Shown: positions 28,326-58,800 of the stretch, piece by piece
Position numbering within the stretch: the stretch's first letter is position 1
Layout of the letters: the number at the start of each line of letters is the position of its first letter
Assembly: GCA_020137815.1 (NCBI GenBank)
Contig: CM035355.1
Location: 124,001 to 188,000, forward strand
Source: Hormiphora californensis
Lineage: Eukaryota; Animalia; Ctenophora
Length of the DNA stretch: 64,000 nucleotides
Direction: 5' to 3'
The notes under the pieces: generated by a model
Told to the model about the DNA's origin: nothing
The model's database searches: none
What the model saw: only the letters and a program-made list of their open reading frames with translations
Made by a program: the position numbers and the translations under genes

Positions 28326-28380
<55 letters not shown>

Positions 28381-30810: not shown

Positions 30811-31404
30811 TTATTATATATTTTTCAATAGTCGCCCAAACAAACTATTACTCTCTAAAGGCAAGCCAATTCAGGTTGAATGTGAATTTATTTGTGAACA
30901 AGAATAATTGTCGTGATGCTAGCTTAAATAATGCGCCAGTGGCGAGAGGTGCCACTGGCACGCTCTCTATAAAAAGCCATCTGGGTCTGCTCTGATCAAA
31001 TCAAATCAACCCCAGGGAAACCTAGGGCAGAATTATTTCAAACCGTGTCAAACCGTGTCACACACACATTGTCATATCGACAGATCTCAATTTCTGGAAT
31101 TGCTGTTCTCTGTGGCACTGATTTTTCTTGTTTTTTCTCTCTCAATTTGATTCTCTCTTTTTCCTATCCCGAAATTCTCTCTCTTCTCTCTTTCAAATCA
31201 GACTCTTGCCGCGTCACTTTCGAGCCTGATGTGTCAAACGGAGCGGTCATCCTTTAATCACCAATCGGAGGTTTCGTTTCTGTGCGAGGTAACTGATTTC
31301 TCTCTCTTCCATCAGTGCGCTCCCGATACAAACCAAATCAAGGAGCCAGCCCTAAGACACAACCTCAAGCTAGGGACAAAGTGCAGCTCCCTAGTTGTGA
31401 GTAG

Positions 31405-34400
31405 TAATAATAATAATAATAATAATATTCCGCACTTATATACCGCCCATACCCGACGGAAACATGTCAAAAATATGGCGATGTTCCGACGAGTCATCAG
31501 AGCGGTATATCTAGAGTATAAATATCGCACACGAACAACTCTGGTTGAAAAAGACAATATATGGAAAACCAAATTAACTGGACTTATCAAAACTGGGGGA
31601 ATAACTGGTCCCATAAACCTGTAGATATAATTTTAAACACGCTAACTCACACCTGCTCAAAAAAGGATACCAGATAGTGATTTAATAACATGACTAGAGA
31701 GAGGATGACACTGATTGCCCGCAGGCCCCACAACTACAACAAAAAATTACAACTCAGCCATGGGTTCCCCATCACCCACTCCAAATGCCACAACGAAGAG
31801 ATGTGTTTTCAGGCGAGCTTTAAAGGTATCAACGTTGGGGATCGTCCTTAACTCGAGGGGTAGCTCATTCCAAATAGTAGGCAGAAATACCGATAGTCTC
31901 CTACGTCTCAATTTAGAATTGGCATTGATACTGGTCATCTTGGGGTGTTTTAATCTGTAAGGATCAATAACATTAGTCATCCTTGTTGTCCTGGAGACTC
32001 CCCAGCTTTCATCAAGAGGTACCATTTCCTGGAGGTAACCTGGGGCTGTTCCATAGAATATCTTATAAGCGATTAGACAGGCTTTGAAGTCCAGTTGTAG
32101 GAGAGGGTACAATATGACACTGCCTGAAGTATTCCAAGTAACCTCTTGATGCCCATGGATGTTGAATATAAAGCGGACACAGGAGTTTAGTGTTTTCTGG
32201 AGCCCACCAAGAACTCGGGCCGGAAGTCCACAGTACAGAATATTACTGTAATCAATCCTCGATATAATCAATTGTTTGACCAGCATTATCTTCGTTTGAA
32301 TAAAAACATCTGTGTAACTGCCAGAGATTCCGTAGTATCAGCCCACACTGTTTCCTCACATTATTCTCTTCACCTTCGCCAGACACTCCTCAATATAAAC
32401 TTTGTCCTAGACCAGCCAGTAGAATCCGTAGGAACCAGACTCACATAGAGCTGGGAGTCGTCTGCATATAACTTTATCCGGAGTCCATATGGTTCCACAA
32501 TATCTTGCACAGCTTCAATGTAAAGTAGAAACAAAATTGGACCAAGAAGGGACCCCTGGGGCACTCCACAGAGTAAGGCTAGGGTATCGAGAAAAATCAC
32601 CAACTGAGACTCTAAAAGATCTGGAACTCAAGTAGCTCTTAAAACATTGAAGAGGATCACCATCCACTCCAAACCGTTTCTGCAACACCTCCAACAACTT
32701 TTCATGATCCACCGTATCAAATGCGGCACTCATGTCCAAACAGATCAGAGCCACGACATTTTCTTTATCCATCTCACCTAATACATCGTCAAACATGCTG
32801 GCTAACAGAGTTTCGCAACTGTGACCAGCACGATAACCGATTGATGCTTGCCCAGAAGTGAATTGCTTTCAAGGTACTCATTCAGCTGCATGAGCACCAC
32901 CTTTTCTAGGAGCTTAGAAAGGAATGGGATATTTGAGACAGGACGATAGTACTGAGAGCTTCCCTATCTCCGTACATATTCTTGGGTAGGAAACACGATA
33001 GCCTTCTGGAGAGATTCCGCAACTGTAGACTGATGTAGAGATTGGTTTACCTCGATGTTAATACCGGAGCAAGATCCCTAATGCACTCCTTTACTACCAA
33101 GTGGGCAACGGATCAAGGTCACAATGTTTGCTTGACATAGACTTCACCCCCTTAACAAGTTCCTCCTCCGATATCTCTTGAATTCTTCCACGTTGAATGA
33201 CAGGCTTTTCCGGGTTCCTCAAAGTCGCCAGCTTGCTTCTGCCCCTCATTGACTTGGGTTCGAATTTTTTCCACTTTGGAACTAAAGAACTGGGAGAAAT
33301 CATCTGCCAAGTTCTTGGTGTTTGTTGTTTCAGGAAGAATTGTTTCAGCTTTTCCAAGAAGTTTCTGGAGCTTACTTTGCAATTTCTTTGGGTACCTTTG
33401 GCAGCAACCAAGTCTCTTTATGAAAAGTGACCTCTTTTCCCATCATCTTTCCATACAGTTTCTTCAGGTCATTAAATCTCCGTTTCGCATCCACAGTTCC
33501 GAGTTTCCGCCAACACCGTTCTGCATTCCTCCTCTCTCGAAGTAATCCTCTAAGTTCCTCATCCCTCCATGGCTTAAACTTTTTCCCAATCCTCACCCGC
33601 TTCCTCGGTACTCGCCTCTCCACTATACCTTCCAGCCAACGATAGAAATTCACCACGCCCTCCTCTGGATCCCTACCTCCTTCAAAATCAGCCTTCCGCA
33701 AATCCTCCCTAAATCCTTCCAAATCCACTGACTTGTAATCCATGTACTCTCGATATACGACTTCTTCAGACAGGAGTTCGACAGGTCAGGTCTCACTTCA
33801 ATCCCCAACTGTACTAGGAAGTGATCTGATGTAGTACCATTAGGAAAATGGATATGTCACCTAGAGAAGTTTCTCTTGTAGTTATCACCAGTCCAAGGTT
33901 CCTCCAAGCCGGTGAGTAGGTAACAGTGGCACTCTTTGTTGAAGATCAAATGAATCCAGCAGCTCCAAAAGTTTCCTCGCATAGAAGTTATTAGCATCCT
34001 GCACCTGGAAGTTCAAGTCACCGAGCGATGATCGGAGTACCTTGCTTCATAACAAGCTCGGATAGGTAATCACCAAACTGATAGGAAGGTTGCTTCTGTA
34101 AGTCTTGACTTCGGTGTGTACGGAGGTCGGTAGACATTACAGATTCTCTTCGGTTGATCTCTGTCACTGATCAGGACCTCTTGAACTTGAAAAGACTTAT
34201 ACTTAGTCTTCACCGGACACTGTCGAAGAACTATGCCATCTCTAAAAAGGATTCCAATTCCTCCACCTCTCTGTCTCCTCTGGGGCACGAGAAAATATCC
34301 CATCCATTATCTCTGATTTCTTGAAGTTTTCCGGTGTCTGTTGATTTCAAAAATGTTTCCTGTATAAGACAAATATCACAATCCTCCTCTTCCAGATGCG

Positions 34401-35849
34401 AAATAACTCCTCCAGTTTGTTAATGAGAGAGCGGACATTTAGTGCTCCAATCTTCCAAGTCTTTTCCTGTGTAGTTCCTCCTTTGTCTCGTCCAGTACAG
34501 GTTTTTTTTCTTCTTGCTTACACCTGACGTCCTCTCCATAAGCCGTGCTCGTTCATTGATTGTACGAGGGACACCACATAGAAGCGTATGGGTCCTCGCA
34601 TACTTCTTGTCCTCTCTTGATCCTCCAACCGCACAGTTCACACACTTCATCTTACCAGTCTCATTGTTTTTCTTTGCCCTACAGTCCTTTGTCTGGTGTG
34701 TTCCAGCACAAAAGCAGCACACAGGGTTTTCCTTCTGAGGACAGTAGATCGAGCCTGCTATATGTCCGTATCCTTGACAGTGATAGCATTGAATCACATG
34801 ATACCGTTCTTGACAATGTTGTCGAAGACCTAGGTTGAGTTTATCACCGTTGTTAGACAAAAGCCTCCGGATCTCTGGAGCCATCTGGATCACTGCATAC
34901 CTGTCTCTCTCGCTCACAAACACTACTTTCAACTTCTTATCCTCATGATAAAGCTTTCTGATATCCTCATTTTTGTTCAAAATTGCTGCCAGGATAGTCT
35001 CCTTTTCCAGTAGTTCAGGGTTTCAAATCATTAATCGTCACTTTGGTTCAAGTTTCTTGGCCTCCTCTGAGAAGAATGACATGGAGCAGTCCTGTGCAAG
35101 AGGAGTCAACACTTTCTCCGCTTCCTTCATCTGGTCCTCATTAGGGAAATACAGTCGAGTATGGTCACTGTTCACTCTGGATCTCACCCACGGTACGTCT
35201 CAACGCAGTTTCCACTTTGGGTTTGACCTCATCAGTCCATTCTTCGCACAGAATCCTAACCCTCCTTCCTCATTGATGCCAGTTTTAATATTCACATAGT
35301 GTTTCATCGTAGGTGTAACCGGTTCTCTGGATCACCACCACCACCAATGTCACTTCTACCATTCTCCACAGGCTTGACCAAAGCAGAGATAGTCGAAACC
35401 AGATCTTTGTGCAGCTTTGCAAACGACTCCTTCAGGTCAGTTGGTCTCCAGGAACAGAAAACGGTGCCGACGCCGGAAGCATACTGTAGCAGGCTTTGAG
35501 AAGATGCCACAACTGAGGTTTATGGACAGACGACGGACAAACAGTTCACCCCTCTCAAGGCACACTAACAAATCAATACCCTTATAATCATTGCTAAATA
35601 CTTCTCCTGATAACACGTCTTCAAAATCACTCTTAGTGATACATATGTCATAATTACTCGTAACGGTCATCCTAAAACACCGTTGCACGCCGGCCAACAA
35701 AAAACTCTTCACTGATATCACTCGAAGTTAAGTTAAAGTAGGCCTAACAGAGATCTAAAAGATTAGAGAATAGATGCTAACACAGTTATCGGAACGATGA
35801 CGGCAAACTCAAATTAATTTGTTTAAAGTAGTGTTGAAAAGTTTGAAAC
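31405..35849 (-). mobile_element. L2/CR1-group LINE, frameshift-riddled twin of 45384-49882
   Basis: Fragmented ORFs with LDMSAAFDTVDH, GVPQGSLLGP, YADD and CCHC knuckles; (ATT)n tail; SL at 35808-35849. Confidence 0.9.
35808..35849 (-). other. Spliced-leader exon sequence at the LINE 5' end (twin copy)
   Basis: GTTTCAAACTTTTCAACACTACTTTAAACAAATTAATTTGAG, identical to 49841-49882. Confidence 0.75.
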
Positions 35850-36342
35850 AAAGACAACTTGTATATCACTACATTTTGATGCCAGCCCTGTTGACCCAAG
35901 CTTCCTGCCAGCTCTTTGACAGGCCCAGAACTAATGCATGTGTAGTTATACTGCCAAGGGGAGCCTACCAACACAACCCAGGATAAACTAGTCATACACT
36001 GAGATTGTAAAGTTTTACACATAAAATACATCTGAAACCAAATAATATTCCACCGCCTGACAACTGACAGGGTAACACGTTGAAATTTTGATCGTACAAT
36101 AGAAGAGAGATTGCATTTTCCAACTTTTATCTCCAAGTGGCTCATGTTTCTGAACCACCCTGTACTAGGGGTTGCTAAGTCGAATGAATCGCAATGAATC
36201 ATTTTACCTGTTATTCATTGGGTAATTATCTACTGATATCTGGAGTTTCAGCCCAAACGGTTGAGCCACTAAAAATCGCAAGCCACCCTGCTCTCGCATG
36301 GGGCCTCACGGCCCCATGTGGGAGTGGTGCGTGTAGTGGACC

Positions 36343-36373
<31 letters not shown>

Positions 36374-37305: not shown

Positions 37306-37826
37306 TAGGGTTAAAGGGGTAAAATGGCACACTTTCTAACGTTTTAGGTTCTAAAATACTCAATTTATACAGCAAGAAAAAAAAATTATATAGGCTATCC
37401 ATGAAACGTTTTCCTTTCAGACGAGCTAAATTTTAAAATCTGAAAGTTTTTATTTAATAGCTTAATTAATCAATTCAAAAAGTTTGGTAGGGTTCTTTTG
37501 GAAATTTTGCACTGGGGTAAAATGGTCAGCCAATAGCATTGCTCGATTTTTATCACGTGCCTGGTGTTGTTAGAGCACTGGGGTAAAATGGTCCATGTTA
37601 TCTTCAGTAATTTCTGTTTGCTGGACCATTTTACCCCAGTGTGTCGGACCATTTTACCCCAGTTGGTATCACGTGGTATTGGAGGCTCGATTTCATTGGT
37701 CCCAGGGTGAACCATTTTACCCAGCGAGGGTGAACATTTTACCCCAGTTTGACTAATTTGACAATTTAATCAACTTAATAGTGGGTTTTTTGAAAAATTT
37801 TTATACCAGTTTTAGAAGGATAAAAC
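37306..37826. repeat. TIR-element fragment with ccattttacccc subrepeats
   Basis: ggggtaaaatgg / ccattttacccc repeated in both orientations. Confidence 0.5.
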
Positions 37827-39315: not shown

Positions 39316-40161
39316 CAGTCGGACCCCAATTTAGTGGCCCCCGATTTAGTGGCACCCCGATTTAGTGGCACGATTTTTTTCCCCCAAAATTTTTTTTGTG
39401 AAATTTTTTGAAAATTTTTCAAAGGAATACCAGCCACGTCCAAATCGTGTTTCGAATCAGTGAATCTTATCGCATATCCTGCTGCTAATTAGACGGTTCG
39501 CAACGAACCGATACGTGATCCCCTGGGGGCCATTGAATCACAAGTTCACCAAGAGTCAAAATTTCGATTCGATGGGGATCACGTTCCGATTCGTTCCGAA
39601 CCATCTAATTAGCAGCAGGACATGCGATAAGATTCACCGATTCGAAACACGATTCGGACATGGTATACTTTTTAAAAAAATTTAAAACCTTTTTTGCAAA
39701 ATTTTACAGTACGATTGTCAATGCTTTGATCGGTGCTCCTCAAAAATTTTGAGAGAAAAAGTTATTTTGAAATTTTGATACTTCCTCACCCGCTTAGGGT
39801 GCCCCGATTCGGCATGGTATCACGTATCGGTTCGTTTCGAACCTGCTAATTAGACAGGACATCCAGTAAGCTGCACCGATTCGAAACACAAATCGGACGG
39901 GCTGGTATAATATAAGAAAATTTTCACAATTTTTTTTGAAAAAATTATTTTAAAGTTTTCTATTTCTAATCAGAAATTATCATGTCATCAATACATGAAC
40001 ATTGTATATAACAGTTAGAGGTGTTTTTAGTCGTGGTATAGCATTTTGGGCATAAAATAGGTTTTTATGGGCCAAATATGGATCTCCCCGATTTAGTGGC
40101 ACCCCGATTTAGTGGCAGGATTTTTTTCCCCCGAGGATGCCACTAAATCGGGGTCCGACTG
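39316..40161. mobile_element. Pogo/Tigger-like MITE, TA TSD
   Basis: ta|cagtcggacccc ... ggggtccgactg|ta; empty TA site at 26032-26033. Confidence 0.9.
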
Positions 40162-40566
40162 TAATAACAAAAATTTTAATAAAAAAAATTAAGTAATTTT
40201 TGAGGATTAATGATGATTTTTAAGGATTAATGAGGGCCCTCATTAATTCAAAAAGTGCTGGACAAGATATCATCCTCATTAATTATTGCCCCCCCCCCCC
40301 CATCGCACTTCATCACTCAATATTCAAGTATTTATTAGGAAGTAATTTTGATATCTCGTCTCCTTCTGCCGGGACTGTCTGGCGGCGCTGACCCGATCTA
40401 AGCACACTGACGCACGCTTAGAGAATCAAAACGGGTCGTTGGGGTCTGGCGGCGCCTGGGGTTGAGAGGATTCAACAGGCAGTGAGAGGACTCAAAAGGG
40501 GGTGTGAAAGTCAATAGCGGCGAAAGGAGTCAAGCGCAATAGGGATTGGTTCTAACTACTACTTAC

Positions 40567-40953
40567 CGCAAACTTTGGACCTTTTACATTGTAGCTCGGT
40601 GATGTCAGAAATTGTGCTGTAATCGTTGATCAACATTGACATTAAATCCATCGATTCTATGGATATCGTATCCTGTTCGGAGTCAGTCTCAGTACTATCA
40701 ATATCATAACAACGCCATGATTCTGGATCCGCACATTTCATGTTATTTTGATTAGCAACAAGTGACGTTGATGTCACTGATTCCACAGACTCGTATAAAG
40801 CAGAATTTTTTTCCTTGTCCAAGTAGCAACTGTTTGTAGCAATCTCAACTGATTTCTCATGAGAGGTAGAAGGTGCCCGTAAACGTATAGAGAAGGAAAA
40901 TACAACCTCGTCATCAACAAGCTGCAGATGTTCCTCAACGGCCTCCCATTCGC
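40567..40953 (-). CDS. Internal exon (387 nt, phase 1-1), acidic Ser-rich
   Basis: atttacattttag| acceptor, G|gtaagt donor, open reading frame throughout. Confidence 0.75.
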
Positions 40954-41338
40954 CTAAAATGTAAATATTTATAGATTAGTTTAGAGCAAAAACTAATTGA
41001 AGTTAGTTCAATGGAAAGGTAGCCCATTTTGTTTTTACTCCTTCATTTCCGTCACCTTGAGTTGAAGGTGGAAAAGTATACGGATACCTCAATGTCTATT
41101 GGTTGTGTGGGTGAACATTGTACTATAAGCAAAGATCTCTGCTCACAAGAAAAGTCAAGGTCAAAACTGTTTTTCTTTTTTGGTGGTTCATTCCACTCGA
41201 TTCATGAACCAAAATCCCAAAAGTGATGAAAAGGTTTGGCTTTTCTGGCCCACGCCCTGCAATGACAGAGAGTTGTTGTAGCGTGTTTCCGGGCTAATTT
41301 GTGTAAATGGGATCAACCTGCATCCTCAATATCCTTAA

Positions 41339-41807
41339 AGTGAGAGTGGACCGAATCAGAATTGGACAAGTTTGGTGTAGGTGGTAGAGATTAGCTTTCT
41401 GAGCATTTTGCGTTTTTGCCGCTCAAAATCGACCCACCCATCACTGAGATATCTTTGTTATGTTGGGAGAATTTCTGCTGGATCAATATTTATGAAACAG
41501 GATAGAAATAATCCTTGTGTTTTACTAACACATTCTTTAAATTTTCAATATGCTAACTTGCATTGTTCTGCATCTGTGCATGAACATGTCAACCTCACTG
41601 CTTATATTCAGAATGTGTTAGGAAAACATGACGATTGTTTCTATTCTGTTTTTTACATACTGATTAAACAGGAGTTCTCCCAACATAACAAAAATATCTC
41701 AGTGATGGGTGGGTCGATTTTAAGCGGCAAAACCGCGTTATGCTCAGAGAGCTAATCTGTACTACCTACAACAAACTTGTCCAATTCTGATTCGGTCCAC
41801 TCTCACT
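41339..41807. mobile_element. Kolobok-like MITE, TTAA TSD
   Basis: Same family as 4055-4523, opposite orientation. Confidence 0.8.
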
Positions 41808-42343
41808 TTAAATCGATAGTGTTTACGCAGTGTTTACGCAGTGTTTACGCAGTGAATACAGAAAGAATATGCAGTGAATACGCCGTGGTTCCAGAGTGAA
41901 TACGCAGCGAATACGCAATTATTGTGGATATCCTACCAGAACTGGTTACGCAGTGTTTAAAGGGCCTAAAAACCCAAACTTTTATTTAATTATTTTGAAC
42001 ACTACAGCGTAACAAGCATGTTATTGGAGTCCCAAAAAACATAGGTACACGCCCCACCCGCCCAATGTGAGGCCAGGGGGAGCCCCTTAAGTTGGGGCCA
42101 GTCGGGGTTCCCTTGTAAACGCGCTTGTACTCCTTGAAATGCTAACAATATGATCCTCACTGAAATTTGAAGTTTTGGGTGCAGTTGATCCGAAGATCAC
42201 GAATTCAATTAATATGTCGTGATTACTGTTTAATAGCTCAACTGGTCATTCCGAAAAATCAGATACAAACCGCACTGTATATGAGTTGGATCGCTTGGTT
42301 ACTTCCTTCGTTAAACAAGCACACATTACAGTGTGAGAGAATA

Positions 42344-42375
<32 letters not shown>

Positions 42376-43115
42376 TTCAACAAGGACACCGACCCAACCT
42401 CCTGTAAAGCTGGAAACATCGATCTACAAGCAGCCATCGCATCAAAATTAAAAAACAGATAACTCGTCACGTTGTTGTCAGTCTGCTGATACCATTCCTG
42501 ACTACCCTCCTGTTAAAGGTTACTCCAGTCTTCGTAACAACTCGCTCGTCGCTCTGCTAAAGGAAGGCATATAGCAAAGCTCACTTCACAACCACTTCAC
42601 GCGGATACATTAGTTGAGTGCGTGGTATATTTTCTTGTGTTATGTATACCGAAACTAATTTGTAAATCTTGTAAATCTAATCATTGTCATGTTTGTCTCT
42701 CTAGGTTTCGTCATGTATGCTGTCCCTCAGTGCGGTAATAAGTTTTGTGTCATGTTGCATTGTATTACCTCATTACCTCATTACCTGAGCATTGTATTAC
42801 CTCATCTATCACCATTCAACGAACTCGAACCGCCGCTGCAGTGACCCACCGAGCCAACTTCTCCTCCCAGCTCCTCCAACAATCCTCGTCTTCATGAGAT
42901 CGGAGTTCAACCACCACGAAGAACCAGAGGACGTCCGAGGACCAGAGCAACCCCTGAGGACCTTCTTCCTTCAGATTTTGGTCAGACAGTGAAACCGAAC
43001 AGCAGAGATATGGGGATTCAAGCCATCAGATGCAATATCTGCAAACAGCCGGGACATGTCGATAGAATCTGTCCCACCCATTCCACTGCATCCTCGACTA
43101 CTCATCCAGCTCTTA

Positions 43116-43371
43116 AAGTCGGATTTCTTCAAGTTATCACCCCCCTTTTCGCGCGCGGTGTCGTATTTGCGCGTGACAGCCCCCACTTTCTCTCACTTCT
43201 CGGCAAAAAGCCGCATATTCATCGGAAAGAAAATAATTTTGTGAGTCCGTAAAGTTTTTGTTTGACGAAATTGGTCAAGAAATGAAGGCGTGAGAGTCAA
43301 AATAAGTTTCCAGCACGCAAATAAAATGTCGCGTGCCACCCAGGGCGGTGACAACTTCAAAAATCCGACTT
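43116..43371. mobile_element. MITE interrupting the zinc-knuckle ORF
   Basis: ta|aagtcggattt ... aaatccgactt|ta; removal restores the reading frame. Confidence 0.8.
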
Positions 43372-43907
43372 TACTTCTTTCCCTGCAGTTGTGTCTAAAT
43401 TTGTCCAGACTTCTCCATCTTTTTCTACTAGACGCCCTGATTTGGGAGATGACTTCATTGAAATGCTAATGAACGGTGTCTCTCTTTCTGATGCATTACG
43501 CTGGTATGGACTGAAGCGAGAGGAGCTGTCATGATTGCGTATTCACTGCGTATTTGCTGCATATTCACTCTGGAACCGCGGCGTATTCACTGCGTATTAC
43601 TTGCGTATTCGCTCTGTATTCACTGCGTATTCGGTCTGTGTTATATACTACATAAACGCTGCGTAAACACTGCGTAAACACTATCGGAGGATGCGGGTAG
43701 AACCAAAGACTGAGTATTGGCAGCCAAAGTTGTGCCAATTTTCCTCAAAAATCCCAAACGTAATTGAGAAAATCTTCCCAAAATCTCAAAAATCTTATCG
43801 GCCAAAAATAGCGTAGCTGAGATTTTTGCGGCAGCCCCCCCCCCCCCTCCTCGTATTATCTTTTCAAAGTACTGTTCTTAAAAATTGATCTCCAAAATTG
43901 TTGTTTT

Positions 43908-44102
43908 TCAGGACAAAATTGGGTAGTACATATGAAATATTAGGTCGTGCGCGCCAAATGGCGCCAAATGGCGCCAGAAATGGCGCTATTTGGCGATAGT
44001 GCGCACTCGCTACATTTTGGCGCCAAATGGCGCCATTTATTCGCCACGTGGCGCCATTTGGCGTGCACGACCTAATTTTTCATACTACCCAAAATTGTCC
44101 TG
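43908..44102. mobile_element. Short palindromic MITE with ggcgccaaat subrepeats (copy at ~29927-30120)
   Basis: caggacaaaattgggtagta ... tactacccaaaattgtcctg. Confidence 0.7.
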
Positions 44103-44195
44103 TTTTTCTTCTATAGCTATTCTATGCCCATTGCCCATGGGAATGTTACAAATCTTAATTGAGGTCCTTAACGTAATTTATTTTGCATTGCTTAC

Positions 44196-44301
44196 CAAGA
44201 TGGTCCCACCAAATTCGACTTCGTTCAGAATGATGCTCAAGCTGCCGTATTGCATTCTTAAGACACTTTATTTCTTCCTCGATACATGTCTTCTCATCTG
44301 C
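44196..44301 (-). CDS. Internal exon (106 nt, phase 0-1): ADEKTCIEEEIKCLKNAIRQLEHHSERSRIWWDHL
   Basis: ctccacag| acceptor, G|gtaagc donor; joins the next exon as ...WWDHLGEWEAVEEH. Confidence 0.75.
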
Positions 44302-44360
44302 CTGTGGAGTGTTTAACGATCACTAGGATTATAGGCAAGTCAAATCGTGTTATGTAAATA

Positions 44361-44799
44361 TCCTTATTATAAAGTACAAATGCGTGGCGTGGTGAGGAGG
44401 AGGATGTAGTATCCCACGTGCAAATGGTGGGGGTTGCCAAGGAGGTGGCTTGGGAGGGGTATTGGAGGTTTTGGGGGGATACTGCACGTGCATGTTGTTG
44501 ATTGTTTCTTGCGTGTTCCTGTGGTGTTCCTGTGGTGTTTTGGGATCTACTGCTGGGATCGCCATGATTGCCAAACCCTTTCTACCTACGTACCCCGTTG
44601 ATTCTCTACACAGCTATCTATGGATCTTTATCACCTGTTTCTACATGTTATTCAGCGGGATTTCCCTTGATATTTATCATCAGCGCTCTACCACTACGAA
44701 CCTCCGTATTCTTTACCCCGACATGGAGAGACGAATAGTAAGAGCTAGAGGGGGGATAGAGACGGGGGGGGTGTTGTAATACTACAATGGGCTTTCTAG
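44361..44799 (+). mobile_element. Non-autonomous Helitron
   Basis: A|TCCTTATTAT ... ttgta-atac-tacaa hairpin ... CTAG|T, no TSD; inverted relative at 52822-53273. Confidence 0.75.
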
Positions 44800-45736
44800 T
44801 TATTATATATTTTTCAATAGTCGCCCAAACCTATTACTCTCTAAAGGCAAGCCAATTCAGGTTGAATGTGATATTATTTGTGAACAAGAATAATTGTCGT
44901 GATGCTAGCTTAAATAATGCGCCAGTGGCGAGAGGTGCCACTGGCACGCTCTCTATAAAAAGCCATCTGGGTCTGCTCTGATCAAATCAAATCAACCCCA
45001 GGGAAACCTAGGGCAGAATTATTTCAAACCGTGTCAAACCGTGTCACACACACATTGTCATATCGACAGATCTCAATTTCTGGAATTGCTGTTTCTCTGT
45101 GGCACTGATTTTTCTTGTTTCTCTCTCCCAATTTGATTTCTCTCTTTTCCTATCCCGAAATTTCTCTCTCTTCTCTCTTTCAAATCAGACTCTTGCCGCG
45201 TCACTTTCGAGCCTGATGTGTCAAACGGAGCGGTCATCCTTTAATCACCAAATCGGAGGTTTCGTTTCTGTGCGAGGTAACTGATTCTCTCTCTCTTCCA
45301 TCAGTGCGCTCCCGATACAAACCAAATCAAGGAGCCAGCCCTAAGACACAACCTCAAGCTAGGGACAAAGTGCAGCTCCCTAGTTGTGAGTAGTAATAAT
45401 AATAATAATAATAATATTCCGCACTTATATACCGCCCATACCCGACGGAAACATGTCAAAATATTGGCGATGTTCCGACGAGTCATCAGAGCGGTATATC
45501 CTAGAGTATAAATATCGCACACGAACAACTCTGGTTGAAAAAGACAATATATGGAAAACCAAATTAACTGGACTTATCAAAACTGGGGGAATAACTGGTC
45601 CCATAAACCTGTAGATATAATTTTAAACACGCTATACTCACACCTGCTCAAAAAAGGATACCAGATAGTGATTTAATAACATGACTAGAGAGAGGATGAC
45701 ACTGATTGCCCGCAGGCCCCACAACTACAACAAACA

Positions 45737-46360
45737 TTACAACTCAGCCATGGGTTCCCCATCACCCACTCCAAATGCACCAACGAAGAGATGTGTTTTC
45801 AGGCGAGCTTTAAAGGTATCAACGTTGGGGATCGTCCTTAACTCGAGGGGTAGCTCATTCCAAATAGTAGGCAGAAATACCGATAGTCTCCTACGTCTCA
45901 ATTTAGAATTGGCATTGATACTGGTCATCTTGGGGTGTTTTAATCTGTAAGGATCAATAACATTAGTCATCCTTGTTGTCCTGGAGACTCCCCAGCTTTC
46001 ATCAAGAGGTACCATTTCCTGGAGGTAACCTGGTGCTGTTCCATAGACTATCTTATAAGCGATTAGACAGGCTTTGAAGTCCAGTCTGTAGGAGATGGGT
46101 ACAATATGACACTGCCTGAAGTATTCCAAGTAATCCTCTTGATGCCCATGGATGTTGAATATAAAGCGTACACAGGAGTTTAGTGTTTTCTGGAGCCCAC
46201 CAAGAACTCGGGCCGGAAGTCCACAGTACAGAATATTACTGTAATCAATCCTCGATATAATCAATTGTTTGACCAGCATTATCTTCGTTTGAATATCAAA
46301 ACATCTGTGTAACTGCCAGAGATTCCGTAGTATCAGCCCACACTGTTTCCTCACATTATT
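45737..46360 (-). pseudogene. C-terminal part of LINE ORF2, out of frame after the deletion
   Basis: L2-type motifs SRIDYSN..GLP, FKACLIAYK, APGYL, WNELP..FKARLKTHLF. Confidence 0.85.
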
Positions 46361-49300
46361 CTCTTCACCTTCGCCAGACACTCCTCAATATCAACCTTTG
46401 TCCTAGACCAGCCAGTAGAATCCGTAGGAACCAGACTCACATAGAGCTGGGAGTCGTCTGCATATAACTTTATCCGGAGTCCATATGGTTCCACAATATC
46501 TTGCACAGCTTCAATGTAAAGTAGAAACAAAATTGGACCAAGAAGGGACCCCTGGGGCACTCCACAGAGTAAGGCTAGGGTATCCGAGAAACAATCACCA
46601 ACTGAGACTCTAAAAGATCTGGAACTCAAGTAGCTCTTAAACCATTGAAGAGGATCACCATCCACTCCAAACCGTTTCTGCAACACCTCCAACAACTTTT
46701 CATGATCCACCGTATCAAATGCGGCACTCATGTCCAAACAGATCAGAGCCACGACATTTTCTTTATCCATCTCACCTAATACATCGTCAAACATGCTGGC
46801 TAACAGAGTTTCGCAACTGTGACCAGCACGATAACCGGATTGATGCTTGCCCAGAAGTGAATTGCTTTCAAGGTACTCATTCAGCTGCATGAGCACCACC
46901 TTTTCTAGGAGCTTAGAAAGGAATGGGATATTTGAGACAGGACGATAGTTACTGAGAGCTTCCCTATCTCCGTACATATTCTTGATGGTAGGAAACACGA
47001 TAGCCTTCTGGAGAGATTCCGCAACTGTAGACTGATGTAGAGATTGGTTTACCATCGATGTTAATACCGGAGCAAGATCCCTAATGCACTCCTTTACTAC
47101 CCAAGTGGGCAACGGATCAAGGTCACAATGTTTGCTTGACATAGACTTCACCACCTTAACAAGTTCCTCCTCCGATATCTCTTTGAATTCCTTCCACGTT
47201 GAATGACAGGCTTTTCCGGGTTCCTCAAAGTCGCCAGCTTGCTTCTGCTCCTCATTGACTTGGGTTCGAATTTTTTCCACTTTGGAACTAAAGAACTGGG
47301 AGAAATCATCTGCCAAGTTCTTGGTGTTTGTTGTTTCAGGAAGAATTGTTTCAGCTTTTCCAAGAAGTTTCTGGAGCTTACTTTGCAATTTCTTTGGGTC
47401 ACCTTTGGCAGCAACCAAGTCCTCTTTAATGAAAAGTGACCTCTTTTCCCTATCCATCTTTCCATACAGTTTCTTCAGGTCATTAAATCTCCGTTTCGCA
47501 TCCACAGTTCCGAGTTTCCGCCAACACCGTTCTGCATTCCTCCTCTCTCGAAGTAATCCTCTAAGTTCCTCATCCCTCCATGGCTTAAACTTTTTCCCAA
47601 TCCTCACCCGCTTCCTCGGTACTCGCCTCTCCACTATACCTTCCAGCCAACGATAGAAATTCACCACGCCCTCCTCTGGATCCCTACCTCCTTCAAAATC
47701 AGCCTTCCGCAAATCCTCCCTAAATCCTTCCAAATCCACTGACTTGTAATCCATGTACTCTCGATATACTGACTTCTTCAGACAGGAGTTCGACAGGTCA
47801 GGTCTCACTTCAATCCCAAACTGTACTAGGAAGTGATCTGATGTAGTACCATTAGGAAATATGGATATGTCACCTAGAGAAGTTTCTCTTGTAGTTATCA
47901 CCAAGTCCAAGGTTCCTCCAAGCCGGTGAGTAGGTAACAGTGGCACTCTTTGTTGAAGATCAAATGAATCCAGCAGCTCCAAAAGTTTCCTCGCATAGAA
48001 GTTATTAGCATCCTGCACCTGGAAGTTCAAGTCACCAGCGATGATCGGAGTACCTTGCTTCATAACAAGCTCGGATAGGTAATCACCAAACTCCGATAGG
48101 AAGGTTGCTTCTGTAAGTCTTGACTTCGGTGTGTACGGAGGTCGGTAGACATTACAGATTCTCTTCGGTTGATCTCTGTCACTGATCAGGACCTCTTGAA
48201 CTTGAAAAGACTTATACTTAGTCTTCACCGGACACTGTCGAAGAACTATGCCATCTCTAAAAAGGATTCCAATTCCTCCACCTCCTCTGTCTCCTCTGGG
48301 GCACGAGAAAATATCCCATCCATTATCTCTGATTTCTTGAAGTTTTCCGGTGTCTGTTGATTTCAAAAATGTTTCCTGTATAAGACAAATATCACAATCC
48401 TCCTCTTCCAGATGCGAAATAACTCCTCCAGTTTTGTTAATGAGAGAGCGGACATTTAGTGTCCCAATCTTCCAAGTCTTTTCCTGTGTAGTTCCTCCTT
48501 TGTCCTCGTCCAGTACAGGTTTTTTTTCTTCTTTGCTTACACCTGACGTCCTCTCCATAAGCCGTGCTCGTTCATTGATGTACGAGGGACACCACATACT
48601 AGAAGCTGTATGGGTCCTCGCATACTTCTTGTCCTCTCTTGATCCTCCAACCGCACAGTTCACACACTTCATCTTACCAGTCTCATTGTTCTTCTTTGCC
48701 CTACAGTCCTTTGTCTGGTGTGTTCCAGCACAAAAGCAGCACACAGGGTTTTCCTTCTGAGGACAGTAGATCGAGCCTGCTATATGTCCGTATCCTTGAC
48801 AGTGATAGCATTGAATCACATGATACCTGTTCTTGACAAAATGTTGTCGAAGACCTAGGTTGAGTTTATCACCGTTGTTAGACAAAAGCCTCCGGATCTC
48901 TGGAGCCATCTGGATCACTGCATACCTGTCTCTCTCGCTCACAAACACTACTTTCAACTTCTTATCCTCATGATAAAGCTTTCTGATATCCTCATTTTTG
49001 TTCAAAATTGCTGCCAGGATAGTCTCCTTTTCCAGTAGTTCAGGGTTCAAATCATTAATCGTCACCTTTGGTTCAAGTTTCTTGGCCTCCTCTGAGAAGA
49101 ATGACATGGAGCAGTCCTGTGCAAGAGGAGTCAACACTTTCTCCGCTTCCTTCATCTGGTCCTCATTAGGGAAATACAGTCGAGTATGGTCACTGTTCAC
49201 TCTGGATCTCACCACCGGTATCGTCTTCAACGCAGTTTCCACTTTGGGTTTGACCTCATCAGTCCACTTCTTCGCACAGAATCCTAACCCTCCTTCCTCA

Positions 49301-49701
49301 TTGATGCCAGTTTTAATATTCACATAGTGTTTCATCGTAGGTGTAACCGGTTCCTCTGGATCACCACCACCACCAATGTCACTTCTACCATTCTCCACAG
49401 GCTTGACCAAAGCAGAGATAGTCGAAACCAGATCTTTGTGCAGCTTTGCAAACGACTCCTTCAGGTCAGTTTGGTCTCCAGGAACAGAAAACGGTGCCGA
49501 CGCCGGAAGCATACTGTAGCAGGCTTTGAGAAGATGCCACAACTGAGGTTTATGGACAGACGACGGACAAACAGTGTCACCCCTCTCAAGGCACACTAAC
49601 AAATCACTACCCTTATAATCATTGCTAAATACTTCTCCTGATAACACGTCTTCAAAATCACTCTTAGTGATACATATGTCATAATTACTCGTAACGGTCA
49701 T
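46351..49701 (-). CDS. LINE polyprotein: gag-like ORF1 (three Cys/His knuckles) + APE endonuclease + reverse transcriptase (truncated after YADD)
   Basis: CYHCQGYGH, CCFCAGTH, CVNC..H..C; NVRS, QET, YRPP, GDLN, SDH; NYRPVS, QSGYR, LDMSAAFD, GVPQGS, YADD. Confidence 0.92.
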   Translation of the reverse strand: MTVTSNYDICITKSDFEDVLSGEVFSNDYKGSDLLVCLERGDTVCPSSVHKPQLWHLLKACYSMLPASAPFSVPGDQTDLKESFAKLHKDLVSTISALVKPVENGRSDIGGGGDPEEPVTPTMKHYVNIKTGINEEGGLGFCAKKWTDEVKPKVETALKTIPVVRSRVNSDHTRLYFPNEDQMKEAEKVLTPLAQDCSMSFFSEEAKKLEPKVTINDLNPELLEKETILAAILNKNEDIRKLYHEDKKLKVVFVSERDRYAVIQMAPEIRRLLSNNGDKLNLGLRQHFVKNRYHVIQCYHCQGYGHIAGSIYCPQKENPVCCFCAGTHQTKDCRAKKNNETGKMKCVNCAVGGSREDKKYARTHTASSMWCPSYINERARLMERTSGVSKEEKKPVLDEDKGGTTQEKTWKIGTLNVRSLINKTGGVISHLEEEDCDICLIQETFLKSTDTGKLQEIRDNGWDIFSCPRGDRGGGGIGILFRDGIVLRQCPVKTKYKSFQVQEVLISDRDQPKRICNVYRPPYTPKSRLTEATFLSEFGDYLSELVMKQGTPIIAGDLNFQVQDANNFYARKLLELLDSFDLQQRVPLLPTHRLGGTLDLVITTRETSLGDISIFPNGTTSDHFLVQFGIEVRPDLSNSCLKKSVYREYMDYKSVDLEGFREDLRKADFEGGRDPEEGVVNFYRWLEGIVERRVPRKRVRIGKKFKPWRDEELRGLLRERRNAERCWRKLGTVDAKRRFNDLKKLYGKMDREKRSLFIKEDLVAAKGDPKKLQSKLQKLLGKAETILPETTNTKNLADDFSQFFSSKVEKIRTQVNEEQKQAGDFEEPGKACHSTWKEFKEISEEELVKVVKSMSSKHCDLDPLPTWVVKECIRDLAPVLTSMVNQSLHQSTVAESLQKAIVFPTIKNMYGDREALSNYRPVSNIPFLSKLLEKVVLMQLNEYLESNSLLGKHQSGYRAGHSCETLLASMFDDVLGEMDKENVVALICLDMSAAFDTVDHEKLLEVLQKRFGVDGDPLQWFKSYLSSRSFRVSVGDCFSDTLALLCGVPQGSLLGPILFLLYIEAVQDIVEPYGLRIKLYADDSQLYVSLVPTDSTGWSRTKVDIEECLAKVKRIM

Positions 49702-49840
49702 CCTAAAACACCCGTTGCACGCCGGCCAACAAAAAACTCTTCACTGATATCACTCGAAGTTAAGTTAAAGTAGGCCTAACAGAGATCTAAAAGATTAGAG
49801 AATAGATGCTAACACAGTTATCGGAACGATTGACGGCAAA

Positions 49841-49882
49841 CTCAAATTAATTTGTTTAAAGTAGTGTTGAAAAGTTTGAAAC
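49841..49882 (-). other. Ctenophore-type spliced-leader exon forming the LINE 5' terminus
   Basis: 42 nt GTTTCAAACTTTTCAACACTACTTTAAACAAATTAATTTGAG matches the ctenophore SL as recalled; followed by TTTGCC, not a GT donor. Confidence 0.75.
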
Positions 49883-50381
49883 AAAGACAACTTGTATATC
49901 ACTACATTTTGATGCCAGCCCTGTTGACCCAAGCTTCCTGCCAGCTCTTTGACAGGCCCCAGAACTAATGCATGTGCTAGTTATACTGCCAAGGGGAGCC
50001 TACCAACACAACCCAGGATAACTAGTCATACACTGAGATTGTAAAGTTTTACACATAAAATACATCTGAAAACCAAATAATATTCCACCGCCTGACAACT
50101 GACAGGGTAACACGTTGAAATTTTGATCCGTACAATAGAGAGAGGATTGTATTTTTCCAACTTTTATCTCCAAGTGGCTCCATGTTTCTGAACCACCCTG
50201 TACTAGGGGTTGCTAAGTCGGAATGAATCGCTATGAATCATTTTACCTGTTATTCATTGGGTAATTATCTACTGATATCTGGAGTTTCAGCCCAAACGGT
50301 TGAGCCACTAAAAATCGCAAGCCACCCTGCTCTCGCATGGGGCCTCACGGCCCCATGTGGGAGTGGTGCGTGTAGTGGACC

Positions 50382-50382
<1 letters not shown>

Positions 50383-50468
<86 letters not shown>
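50383..50468 (+). repeat. (GA)n microsatellite
   Basis: Direct. Confidence 0.95.
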
Positions 50469-51270: not shown

Positions 51271-52818
51271 GTCCCATATATTCTGTGGGTCGGTTGGCGA
51301 GCTGTCACGCAAAAACGGTGATAGTTGTGTGAAAACAAACTACGGGAGTGTGCTGGATTAATTCCTTCCTAACTGATGGCTTTGTTTTTAAATTAAATTT
51401 CAAAAGTTCATTTTTCATGAATGAACATTCCTGTCATTCATTCGTGAATTCTGAAATATTGTTTACCTTGAGTAAAAAACTTTTCTTTGGCTCGAAATTA
51501 TCTTTCCAATGAGCACCATAAAAATCAAATTGAAGCACCGGATCGCATGGCAGGTGAGAAAATGCAAATGCATGATTTTGGCCATTCCTGCGACTTTCGA
51601 TCAGCTGTATCACCGCTACTTTTCGTTCAATCCTTTTAAAAGTTTGGGTGAACATTGGTGAAGATAAGATCTTTGCTCACAAGAAAAATCAAGGTCAAAA
51701 CTCAAAGTTCATTTTTTATTTTTGGTAGTTCATTCCACTCATTCAGGAACAAACATCCCTAAAGTGACGAAAAGGTTTGGGGTTTTGTTTGGCCCATGTC
51801 CTGAAACGACAGAGAGGTGTAAAAACGTGTTTCCGGGCTAGTTAGTGGGTGTCCATGTGATCATTATGATATCTGACACCTTTGCTGAGCCATAATTAAG
51901 AGATTTTCTCAAATTCAAACATGGGATACGAGTATTCTGCGATTGGTATCGTGCACCAATAACAAGAGATCCCATAGCACCTCAAAAATTATGATTAGCT
52001 AAATGAAATGAGTTGATTTACGATTGAAAAGATTAAAACCAATGTAAAGTCGGACTAAACGAACATTTTCAAGCGTGAATCAACTCATTTCATTTAGCTA
52101 ATCATAATTTTTGAGGTGCTATGGGATCTCTTGTTATTGGTGCACGATACCAATCGCAGAATACTCGTATCCCATGTTTGAATTTGAGAAAATCTCTTAA
52201 TTATGGCTCAGCAAAGGTGTCAGATATCATAATGATCACATGGACACCCACTAACTAGCCCGGAAACACGTTTTTACACCTCTCTGTCGTTTCAGGACAT
52301 GGGCCAAACAAAACCCAAACCTTTTCGTCACTTTAGGGATGTTTGTTCCTGAATGAGTGGAATGAACTATCAAAAATAAAAAATGAACTTTGAGTTTTGA
52401 CCTTGATTTTTCTTGTGAGCAAAGATCTTATCTTCACCAATGTTCACCCAAACTTTTAAAAGGATTGAACCAAAAGTAGCGGTGATACAGCTGATTGAAA
52501 GTCGCAGGAATGGCCAAAATCATGCATTTGCATTTTCTCACCTGTCATGCGATCCGGTGCTTCAATTTGATTTTTATGGTGCTCATTGGAAAGATAATTT
52601 CGAGCCAAAGAAAAGTTTTTTACTCAAGGTAAACAATATTTCAGAATTCACGAATGAATGACAGGAATGTTCATTCGTGAAAAATGAACTTTTGAAATTT
52701 AATTTAAAAACAAAGCCATCAGTTAGGAAGGAATTAATCCAGCACACTCCCGTTTGTTTTCACACAACTATCACCGTTTTTGCGTGACAGCTCGCCAACC
52801 GACCCACAGAATATATGG
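51271..52818. mobile_element. ~1.55 kb near-perfect foldback (same family as 55066-62081)
   Basis: Arms of ~730 bp are reverse complements; left arm also at 36504-37305. Confidence 0.9.
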
Positions 52819-55011: not shown

Positions 55012-55069
<58 letters not shown>

Positions 55070-55834
55070 GGTGTCCCATATATTCTCCGGGTCGGTTGGC
55101 GAGCTGTCACGCAAAAACGGTGATAGTTGTGTGAAAAAAAACTGCGGGAGTGTGCTGGATTAATTCCTTCCTAACTGATGGCTTTGTTTTAAAATTAAAT
55201 TTCAAAAGTTCATTTTTCATGAATGAACATTGCGGCCGTTCATTCATGAATTCTGAAATATTGTTTACCTTGAGTAAGTAACTTTTCTTTGGCTCGCAAT
55301 TATCTTTCCATTGGGCACCATAAAACTCAAATTGAAGCACCAGGTCACATGACAGTTGAGAAAATGAACATGCATGATTTTGGCTCTTTTTGCGACTTTC
55401 AATCGGCTGTATCACCGCTACCTTACCTTCAATCTTTTTGAAACTTTGGGTGAACATTGGATAAGCAAAGATCTTTGCTCACAAGAAAAATCAAGGTCAA
55501 AACTCAAAGTTCATTTTTAAGTTTTGGTAGTTCATTCCGCTCATTCAGTAACCAACAACCCTAAAGTAGGGTGCTCCAAATTATCCAAAAAATTTTAAAT
55601 TTCTCTAACTTTTTTTTAGGTGTGAGGTTTAGTGAGAAAAGCAATTTCCCAAATTTTTTTTGAAATCGGAACTCATTTAGGCTAATCACACGACTAATTA
55701 CGTAATTAGCCATCGCGCAGGAAGTACAACTTCCATTTTGACGTATTTCACCCTTTGGACGATGTTATGAGTTCCAAAATAGCTTGATGACTCTTCTGAA
55801 TGACTTGCTTCTACCTTAGATGCACCCTAGTGAC

Positions 55835-58800
55835 GGTGCACCCTAGTGGCGGTGGCGGTTTTTCTGTCCACTAGAAAGGGCTCTGAGCCCCGGACAACAT
55901 TTGGCGAAGGGGTTCATCCCAGGGTCTACGATGTGAAGTCTAAAACCTCTCGTATTCCAAGTACCGTGGTGCGTGATGAAGAATCACATCCCTCACAAGG
56001 TGCCACTGTTAATCGCTTTTCTGTCCTGGGTGATACCAGACTAAACAGATAAACGAAACGGAACACCACGGTACTAAACCAGTAAAGGTTGAAAAACAAT
56101 CCGTTGCGGGAGCTAGCAAACTCCCGTACCGTATCGGCCTGCTTACTCCTGTCTCTCCTGGAACGTTATCATGGTTGATTCTGGTGAGAGTGGCCGATTT
56201 ATCTTTAGGGGTTGGATCAGTTCCTGCGGTTTCCGGTGATGGACCAGTGGCGCGGCATCATCGGTTATGGAGGGTGCTATTATTGCCTACCTGAGAGGGG
56301 GGACCCTCTCTGTACCCTCCTAGCCATCTGAAAAGCAATCTAATGAAGTTCACCTATAGCGCCAGGGTTAAAGCCCCTGATATTCTTGCGGAGGCCAATG
56401 GCGCCCTTGAAGTGGTAGGCTTAAAGCCTTCGGGAGGGCCTGCTACAGATGGCCGGAGGTCCGAGCCGGAACAGAAAAAAGAACCAAAAAACCCCTTAAA
56501 AACTATAAAAAAATCTAGGATTTTAGGGTGTGATAGTGAGACTACAGAAATACCAAAAACATTTGGGATTATTGGTTGTAGGAGGGAAACGGTCGTGGGT
56601 ACTTTGAATGTGAGGACTATACGGGATGATTGTCGGAGGGAGGTTATGGTGAGCAGGTTTCTGAGTAGTGGTGTGGGTGTTATGGGTGTGCAGGAGCACA
56701 GGATCTGTCATGGCGAGGACGTGCAAGTGGAGAGAGGGAGAGGATTCTGTTTTGTATCTTCGTCGGCGTGGAGGAGTGGTTCTGGTGCAGCGTGTGGCGG
56801 GGTTGGGATGTTTCTGACAGAGGAAGCGTACAGGGCAGTGAAACTGGTGAAACCCTACACTAAGAGGATCCTCCTGGTTAGTTTCTCTGGTAACCCTGCT
56901 CTTACCGTAGTTTGTGTGTACTCTCCTACAGAGGGGAGTGATGCTGAGGAGGCTTCGTTGTTTCATCAGGATCTGCGTGCGGCTATTCATGAGGTTCCAG
57001 CGCATGATGTTCTGTTAGTAGTGGGTGACGTGAATGCTCACCTATCTAGGACGTCACCTGAGGACTCCGGCTTCTATCTCCATCCTACCTCCAACAGGAA
57101 TGGGACCCTCTTGCGTGACACTATGGTTGAGTGTGACCTTGTCGCCGGAAATCATCTGTTCCAGAAGAAGGCATCTAAGCTTCATACTTTCACCAGTGAT
57201 GGTACCCTCTGCAAGAGTCAGATCGACTATATTCTGGTCAGGAGTAAGTGGCGGAACTCTCTGCGGAACCTTGAGGTGGTGGACTCCTTCGGGGATGTCG
57301 GCTCAGATCACCGTGCAGTACTGGGTTTCATACGGCTGAGTCTCCGGAAGACAAAACGACCCAAGGGCCAGATCAGATATGACTTCACTCAGCTGAAGGA
57401 GGATACTGATTTACAGGACGAGTACAGTGTAGAGGTGAACAATCGTTTTGATGTTCTGAAGCAGGATGTGGAACTGAATGACGGTTCTGGGAGGTACGGG
57501 GCATTCGTTACAGCTGTCACTGAGACTAACAGTCGTTTGCTCCCCCGCAAGAGGAAACGAACCCATGACACAGCGATGGATGACCCTAGAGTTCAGACAG
57601 ACCGCGAGGAGTTATTTGTGGCAAAAAGGGCTTTCTTTCATGACCCCACGGAGGAGAGTAGGTGTGTGGTCAGTGAGAAGAAGGAGGCTCTTAGTGCTAC
57701 ACATGCCCTGGTGACTGAGGAGATTGTTAGTAGGAAAATAAGGCGTGTGGAGGCGGCCACTGATGAGAGGAAAAGTAAGGAGGCTTGGGATCTTATTAGA
57801 GATGTTACCGGAGGTGGTCGTCCTGGTGGTCTTGTGGAGGGTGGCAGCGCGGAAGGAAGGTTAGAATCGTGGAGGAACCATTTCTCTGGGATACTGGGCG
57901 CCCCGCCTGATGTCCCTGATGAGGACCTGACAGTTCACACGGTTAGTGAGGAACTTCCCATTTCTACCGACCGGTTCACTGCAGAGGAGTTTGATACTGC
58001 TAGGAGGTCGATCAAAGAAGGCAAGGCGTCGGGTGATGATGGTGTTGCACCGGAGGTGTTGAAGAGAGGAGGAGTCAGTGAGATCATGCTGGACTTCTAC
58101 AACGATGCTCTGGAGAATGGTAGCTTCCCGGATCAGTGGAGGAATCTCCTTATAGTCCCTGTTCCTAAAAAGGGCGACCTCACCAAAACTGGGAACTACA
58201 GGGGGATCTCTCTTACTTCTGTGGCTCTAAAGACCCTTAATAAGATTATCCTTAACCGGTTACTGCCCCACGTTGAGCCACTTCTGAGGGACAACCAAAA
58301 CGGTTTCCGCCCTGGACGTTCAACAACGTCCCACATCCTGGCTCTGCGGCGGTTACTGGAAGGTGTAACTGAGCGTAAACTTACCTCAGTTATACTATTT
58401 GTTGATTTTAAACGGGCCTTCGATTCAATACACAGAGGAACCCTTATGCGTATCCTGAGAGCCTACGGGATCCCGGAGAAGCTAGTTAGTCTGATCGAGT
58501 GCTCCTACCGGGACACCATCGCCCGGGTCAAAACGGAGGATGGTCTTACTGAAGCCATTGCTATTCTGGCAGGCGTACTGCAGGGGGACACTCTGGCACC
58601 ATACCTCTTCATCATCGTCATCGATTACGTCATGAGGCAGGCTCTGGAGGGTAAGGACTTTGGCTTCACAATCACCAGGCGAAGGAGTCGTCGTCATCCC
58701 GAGGTGAAGATCTCTGACACCGACTATGCGGACGATCTGTCACTGCTAGCCGATACGATCGACGAGGCTCAGGAGTTTCTTCTGAGTCTGGAGAGTGCTG

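Follow-up and report, generated by a model that had tools for sequence, protein, structure and literature searches.

A conserved in-phase slippery heptamer at the ORF1–ORF2 junction of a ctenophore LINE suggests that its endonuclease–reverse transcriptase is made by −1 ribosomal frameshifting

Introduction

The translation of ORF2 in LINE retrotransposons has been called an open question, and the cases that have been tested use reinitiation (PMC3894237). A locus of the ctenophore Hormiphora californensis raises this question in an unexpected form. In a window of 64,000 nucleotides (positions 124,001 to 188,000 of contig CM035355.1, assembly GCA_020137815.1; all coordinates below are positions within this window), the minus strand carries a LINE whose ORF1 runs without a stop codon through a run of adenines into ORF2. 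The original prediction, made from the letters of this DNA, offered two readings of the junction: a fused Gag-EN-RT protein, or a programmed −1 frameshift at a retrovirus-like A_AAA_AAC heptamer. Here we ask which of these, if either, describes the family to which the element belongs.

Results

The window copy is fused in frame and dead

The stop-free frame extends over 1129 codons (46351-49740, minus strand) and, as had been claimed, places ORF1 and ORF2 in a single reading frame. Behind ORF1 it encodes an APE-type endonuclease domain (47833..48465, minus strand; Pfam PF03372, E 5.6e-13, residues 426-636 of the fused frame) and a reverse transcriptase (RT) domain (46408..46956, minus strand; PF00078, E 1e-22, residues 929-1111). 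The junction lies at 48519..48527 on the minus strand, where family members have an in-phase A_AAA_AAC/U heptamer read as Xaa-Lys-Asn. The window copy has eight A at this place (eight T were counted at 48520-48527, the predicted position of the run), which join ORF1 to ORF2 in frame; the translated frame contains no Met between the run and the first endonuclease motif, KIGTLNVRS. The other frame reads NLYW...LGH* and terminates at the anticipated stop, 48456-48458. With eight A the heptamer is out of ORF1 phase, and it is in phase only in relatives.

Aligned with the relative L001, which is 84% identical in DNA sequence, the coding region of the window copy contains only three indels. One of 3 nt falls in ORF1, the second is the additional A of the junction run, and the third is a deletion that removes 205 nt downstream of the RT domain. 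The last of these (46351..46365, minus strand) breaks the frame and leaves the C-terminal part of ORF2 orphaned in another frame (45737..46360, minus strand). Because the deletion ends the frame at 46351, no whole ORF2 protein can be encoded and the copy is dead.

A second copy in the window (31350..35860, minus strand) also has eight T in its junction run (34502-34509). It shares 8.1 kb, flanks included, with the first copy at 98.3% identity and shows no gap relative to it at the RT deletion. We therefore rejected this twin as an independent copy; it is the same insertion, either duplicated or uncollapsed in the assembly, and adds no independent evidence. Its description as error-prone is borne out by 51 gaps over about 5 kb against nine in the window copy, and the base that it had been said to lack just upstream of the run is indeed missing opposite 48532, the run itself being of full length. 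We regard the in-frame fusion in the window as a lesion of a dead copy, rather likely a mutation and possibly an assembly error; mutation is favored for the eighth A because both window copies have it and because this assembly mostly loses bases.

Anatomy of the element

In the layout common to the family, ORF1 (48456..49701, minus strand) comprises about 414 codons, of which the tail is out of frame in the window copy. It consists of a helical N-terminus, two predicted RRM-like domains, three Cys/His knuckles and a 20-residue tail that overlaps ORF2. The structural model contains two α/β domains (pLDDT about 76-93), for which Foldseek returned tandem-RRM proteins such as NONO/PSPC1 and U2AF65 at E values of 1e-4 to 1e-3, together with other ferredoxin folds, all at low TM-scores. 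The knuckles are recognized by their sequence, Pfam zf-CCHC giving only E 0.094. At the other end, the element closes with a (TAT)n microsatellite (45394..45416, minus strand), which also ends L003 and L004, and is preceded by a predicted terminal stem-loop (45429..45500, minus strand) of about −35 to −38 kcal/mol in all three elements that have a full 3′ end.

A 3′ stem-loop followed by a microsatellite tail is a feature of CR1/L2-lineage LINEs. This feature (3/3), an ORF2 of APE and RT domains, and predicted RRM-like domains directly before CCHC knuckles were all found here, and domain anatomy makes membership in the CR1/L2 lineage, as an L2-like element, plausible. Type I ORF1 proteins, which combine RRM and CCHC, are those of L2 subgroup 2 and CR1 subgroup 3 of Metcalfe and Casane (PMC4120745); the likeness to these LINEs extends to the two RRM-like domains before three knuckles, the APE-RT ORF2 and the microsatellite tail.

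The 5′ end of the element (49841..49882, minus strand) matches the last 42 nt of the ctenophore spliced leader as printed in PMC8527503. The 3′ 24 nt of the leader are identical at the 5′ ends of L001, L003, L005, L006 and L008, each of which has a different flank. The leader-headed loci differ in 5′ truncation; the leader was not seen in the other three, two of which are cut short at the 5′ end. It is likely that the host is a ctenophore, the family being one of comb jelly LINEs, and that the RNA of the element is trans-spliced before being copied. Named relatives come from Pleurobrachia bachei and Mnemiopsis leidyi; scans of viral contigs and of prokaryotic genomes detected none.

Relatives are not fused

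When 3057 candidate proteins of 216-690 aa were searched with ORF1, 14 matched, and the addition of their cluster members gave 49 relatives for comparison. In 45 of these, ORF1 ends with Lys-Asn and a tail of 14-21 residues; three of the remaining four break off earlier and one ends at Lys-Asn-Thr. The original prediction had deduced how ORF1 would end if the run were one base shorter, and precisely this tail, letter for letter, is present in five of the 49, among them proteins 97% and 98% identical to the ORF1 of the window. The relatives have one A fewer at the junction. No fused homolog was detected among 1366 candidates of 620-1976 aa, nor among the best 150 of 2131 matches from a profile search without length restriction, all of which are at most 690 aa. 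Conversely, none of 77 ORF2 homologs matched the ORF1 profile, and the only domains listed for these are PF00078, PF03372 and PF14529. A fusion common to family members, as a single-ORF Gag-EN-RT LINE would have, was not found, and the fused protein is not supported as a family trait.

Sequencing reads tell a compatible story. In Logan contigs, a one-base deletion at 48520 occurs in all four runs, at 6, 25, 20 and 34% of depth, and among the indels listed it is the only frame-changing one in the ORF1–endonuclease region common to all four. These shares are lower bounds for copies with seven A, as the deletion is visible only in contigs that extend across the run, and a simple arithmetic model predicts 4-85% of depth at 48520 for a family composed wholly of 7-A copies. 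The read contigs therefore agree with a 7-A family; they are also compatible with a sizeable 8-A subfamily.

ORF2 opens one base back at an in-phase heptamer

The junction was compared at the nucleotide level in eight loci (L001-L008), confirmed out of 186 pattern matches in metagenome contigs of two assemblies, whose ORF1 proteins are 40-86% identical to that of the window. In all eight, ORF2 lies in the −1 frame behind the slippery A-run, as had been proposed, and overlaps the ORF1 tail; the overlap starts in every case at an in-phase heptamer, A_AAA_AAC in six loci and A_AAA_AAU in two, within a run of six or seven A. The codon before Lys specifies Glu in five loci and Arg, Thr or Ser in the others and always ends in A, and the Lys codon is always AAA, a codon that accounts for 102 of the 279 Lys codons in these ORF1s. 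Four-fold degenerate sites are near saturation (identity 0.17-0.49 over 28 pairs). Of 230 ungapped columns upstream, 14 have an invariant third base, which is A in none of them, and the chance product for five lineages is 3e-5. In 8/8 loci, no other in-phase heptamer of ORF1 leads into ORF2.

The surrounding stops and start codons delimit where ribosomes could enter ORF2. Over the eight loci, the −1 frame holds 11 stops in 28 codons before the heptamer and none after it, and in L002, L004, L005 and L008 a stop stands 1-3 codons before the heptamer. L002, L005, L006, L008 and the window copy contain no AUG from the upstream stop to the endonuclease motif; an in-frame AUG is present in the other four loci, at −6 in L001 and at +8 in L003, L004 and L007, and these four speak against a frameshift. 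Because the −1 frame has stops before the heptamer and is open after it, often without an AUG, entry into ORF2 is pinned to the heptamer in several lineages.

Downstream of the heptamer, the interval 48456..48518 (minus strand) is dual-coding in the eight loci, with the ORF1 tail in frame 0 and the N-terminal linker of ORF2 in frame −1; neither coding frame contains a stop, and the third frame contains ten. The ORF1 stop and an adjoining ATG (48453..48458, minus strand) are invariant in 9/9 sequences and overlie Leu-Asn-Val of the first endonuclease motif. This ATG is in the ORF1 frame, not in that of ORF2, in all nine sequences, and opens an ORF of five codons in 6/8 loci, so that a SART1-type ORF2 AUG overlapping or beside the ORF1 stop was not found. 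A near-cognate AUU or AUC codon is present at +19, two codons before the ORF1 stop, in 8/8 loci.

A wider comparison was made at the protein level with 150 distant ORF1 representatives, of which 143 could be anchored by pattern and seven were dropped. Lys-Asn follows the last knuckle by 13-28 residues in 109 of the 143, often at the end of the protein and in 11 of the 109 directly at it. The residue preceding Lys-Asn can be specified by an A-ending codon in 108 of these 109 proteins, the exception being mis-anchored; the same property holds for 379 of 494 Lys-Asn pairs elsewhere and for 71/109 and 68/98 residues at neighboring positions. Since Ser makes up 62 of the 109, the count is inflated by descent. 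The other 34 proteins have no Lys-Asn in the interval searched, some through wrong anchoring, and several of them contain Asp-Phe-Leu or similar, which could correspond to U-rich heptamers.

No local stimulator, and a candidate distal partner

Folding of the region downstream of the heptamer, likewise proposed in the original prediction, gave no support for a local structure. Of 36 local folds, 35 have z-scores above −2 and one falls below; the RNAalifold consensus is weak, at −3.86 kcal/mol, and covariation contributes nothing to it. Stems of at least 5 bp vary from locus to locus, and no stem-loop or pseudoknot stem is conserved. A small hairpin that spans the stop codon lies about 55 nt away and is disrupted in 3/9 sequences. 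Rfam returned one chance-level match in three loci, and UGGGA, a calicivirus-like motif, is by inspection not conserved in the overlap. As no stem-loop or pseudoknot was found 5-9 nt downstream of the heptamer, the junction would work like a −1 frameshift site, though not like a canonical, structure-stimulated one.

A more distant partner is conceivable. Each of the three elements whose 3′ end is complete has, at +3 to +18 behind the heptamer, bases that can pair, in the same register, with a strand 37-38 nt before the tail that forms the 3′ strand of the terminal stem-loop (45437-45454, minus strand). This candidate duplex shows one change on both sides, and the match is weak in L003. Its rank among about 4175 aligned columns varies from 2 to 73 with the target and the measure used, the narrowest target having been chosen once the duplex was known. 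It is seen only with queries of 16-20 nt; when whole elements were scanned for 30-nt duplexes, none of the five best matches fell within the terminal 200 nt in any of the three complete elements. In cofolding the terminal hairpin stays shut, with the partner strand buried, and the duplex is not favored. That pairing with the 3′ terminal stem-loop adds to the efficiency of slippage is a lead only, and a rather doubtful one.

In barley yellow dwarf virus (BYDV), the region behind the shift site pairs with RNA about 4 kb in the 3′ direction (PMC5009743). There a distal loop pairs with the bulge of a local stem-loop, whereas the LINE has no local stem-loop and its partner strand is buried in a hairpin, although the candidate duplex can be drawn in 3/3 elements.

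Discussion

Since an ORF2 one base back behind a slippery heptamer has been kept in distant relatives, the copying enzyme of these elements is likely made by a slip. Comparative sequence argues strongly for the second reading of the original prediction, and we consider it probable that the endonuclease–RT protein is produced as an ORF1–ORF2 fusion by programmed −1 ribosomal frameshifting at the heptamer. Most ribosomes would translate 20 more codons past the heptamer and stop, releasing free ORF1p of about 414 aa, and a minority, with tRNA-Lys and tRNA-Asn in place, would slip back by one base and continue into a fusion of about 1390 aa. The rate of slippage would then set the high ratio of ORF1p to ORF2p that a LINE needs. 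A_AAA_AAC is counted among the heptamers at which mammalian ribosomes shift most readily, and shifts that occur at low efficiency without a stimulator have been described (PMC5009743); a low efficiency is what we would expect here, given that no local structure follows the heptamer.

The best surviving alternative is termination at the ORF1 stop followed by reinitiation in the −1 frame, at the upstream near-cognate Ile codon or at the AUG that some families possess. Such a mechanism is described for SART1 and human L1 (PMC2881922, PMC3894237), and the AUU/AUC codon in 8/8 loci, the in-frame AUG in 4/8 and the invariant stop-then-ATG in 9/9 would all accommodate it. Nevertheless, this ATG belongs to the ORF1 frame, where it starts just five codons in 6/8 loci, and the ORF1 stop itself lies inside the first endonuclease motif. 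Reinitiation also leaves unexplained why an in-phase heptamer is fixed at synonymous sites 60 nt upstream, and why the −1 frame stays open for the 20-codon linker that begins at the heptamer; we consider it unlikely.

Transcriptional slippage, in which the polymerase would add one A within the A6-A7 run and the 8-A window copy would be a retrocopy of a slipped RNA, is less likely still. Every one of the eight loci has a run of six or seven A, both window copies have eight, and potyviruses use low-efficiency polymerase slippage (PMC5009743). If ORF2p came from slipped RNAs alone and acted in cis, however, each new copy would receive the additional A and fused elements would take over the family, whereas the searches described above found not one fused relative; moreover, the run always ends in an Asn codon (AAC or AAU) and not in further A, which fits slippage of tRNAs better than a requirement for run length.

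Little probability attaches to the idea that Lys-Asn is kept for the function of the ORF1 protein, with the heptamer as a by-product and ORF2 reached by internal entry or splicing. Lys-Asn does end a conserved helix-linker after the last knuckle, and no stimulator was found, yet a constraint on protein leaves third codon positions free and gives no reason why residues that lack A-ending codons should be excluded, and ORF1 ends at Lys-Asn in 11/109 distant relatives. That the ORF1-EN-RT fusion is constitutive in a genuine subfamily that spreads is highly improbable, for although 1129 codons are open, both window copies have eight A and most contig depth at 48520 is gapless, the window copy is dead through its 205-nt deletion, the tail is unfused in relatives that are 97% and 98% identical, and neither the 0/1366 long candidates, the best 150 of 2131 matches (≤690 aa) nor the 77 ORF2 homologs (0/77 with ORF1) provide a fused protein.

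A_AAA_AAC is the gag-pro frameshift site of MMTV, and the proposed slip at the LINE junction resembles viral shifts of this type in that the same heptamer, again in phase, links a zinc-knuckle protein that binds RNA with enzymes encoded in the −1 frame. The LINE differs in having no local pseudoknot or stem-loop 5-9 nt downstream, no LTRs and no encoded protease; because no protease is encoded, the fusion would stay unprocessed.

Among LINEs, a review (PMC5911963) states that a −1 frameshift is needed for ORF2 in TRE5-A and TRE3-A of Dictyostelium. These APE-type non-LTR elements target tRNA genes and have a C-terminal zinc finger in ORF2; the ctenophore site, for its part, is recognized by its conservation among families that are 40-86% identical. 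A precedent for a −1 frameshift in a LINE therefore exists; none was found for CR1/L2-type LINEs in the open-access literature searched, and Repbase entries may mention such overlaps. The words 'frameshift' and 'overlap' do not occur in the main texts of PMC4120745 and of a 2026 survey of the vertebrate CR1 group (PMC13343379). A frameshift is stated for HeT-A gag, and a +1 shift has been suggested for Paramecium LINEs. SART1, with UAAUG coupling, and human L1, with reinitiation, share with the ctenophore element a bicistronic LINE RNA in which ORF2 depends on translation of ORF1 (PMC2881922); in the ctenophore element, by contrast, ORF2 begins 22 codons before the ORF1 stop and has no conserved AUG, and the ATG adjoining the stop is in the ORF1 frame.

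With a defined heptamer kept in phase across many families, retrovirus-like frameshifting in a LINE can be tested directly. If the frameshift is real, the active enzyme would be fused to RNA-binding domains of its own, a point of relevance to cis-preference, and the starts of ORF2 would be mis-annotated, most of the 77 ORF2 proteins in the database beginning inside the endonuclease. In its most extended form, which we put forward as improbable in its entirety, the picture would be one of a large and old clade of animal LINEs that make an unprocessed fusion by a slip at A_AAA_AAC/U, switch this slip by a 3′ stem-loop 3 kb away, cap their RNA with the spliced leader and deposit the leader in each new copy. 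Were the switch by 3′ stem-loop pairing true, it would couple translation to reverse transcription. Genomic copies of the leader number 718 and 491 in ctenophores (PMC8527503), and the leader-headed 5′ ends of LINEs may explain part of them.

The ORF1–ORF2 junction

The sequence GACGAGG lies 9 nt behind the heptamer (window 48503-48510, minus strand) and is unchanged in 9/9 sequences, comprising the window LINE and eight related loci from metagenome contigs (L001-L008). It may be dual coding, form part of the candidate long-range duplex with the 3′ terminal stem-loop, or act as a protein-binding stimulator. The same nine sequences all carry an ATG directly 3′ of the ORF1 stop and in the ORF1 frame (stop and ATG at window 48453-48458, minus strand), which requires the endonuclease Asn codon to be AAT, as it is in every one. 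This ATG starts a five-codon ORF in 6/8 loci and might serve as a trap for reinitiating ribosomes.

For most database ORF2 proteins of the clade (P0200-P0276), the predicted start falls within the endonuclease, a pattern to be expected of an ORF2 that lacks its own start codon. In six distant ORF1 proteins (P0084, P0096, P0100, P0139, P0140, and P0141), Asp-Phe-Leu or Asp-Phe-Gln replaces Lys-Asn at the same place; at the protein level, these residues are compatible with U_UUU_UUA or G_GAU_UUU heptamers.

Other repeats in the window

Near-identical, multi-kb direct duplications pair 28374-36384 with 42344-50423, 6853-11512 with 15742-20296, and 26030-28226 with 40160-42369. One-base gaps between the copies are numerous, and the duplications are likely uncollapsed haplotypes or long-read assembly errors. 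The element at 51271-52818 (about 1.5 kb) is palindromic, its inverted arms are long, and it has related copies at 36507-37307, 55059-55567, and 61014-62089; it is MITE- or foldback-like. A second LINE (56295-59474, plus strand), which we take to be RTE-like, encodes a single ORF of 1059 aa with EN and RT by Pfam. It looks intact, ends in a short tandem repeat, and is flanked by inverted repeats, approximately at 55059-55834 on one side and 60504-62089 on the other.

Spliced leader at the LINE 5′ ends

The ctenophore spliced leader constitutes the 5′ end of the window LINE (49841-49882, minus strand) and of five related loci (L001:38-79, L003:7-48, L005:102-142, L006:17-58, and L008:84-112), abutting the 5′ UTR directly and 5′-truncated to differing extents. 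Its last two bases, AG, might be reused as a trans-splice acceptor in a new LINE copy. Genomic spliced-leader matches in ctenophores number in the hundreds, according to PMC8527503, and the leader-headed LINE copies may be part of the matches described there.
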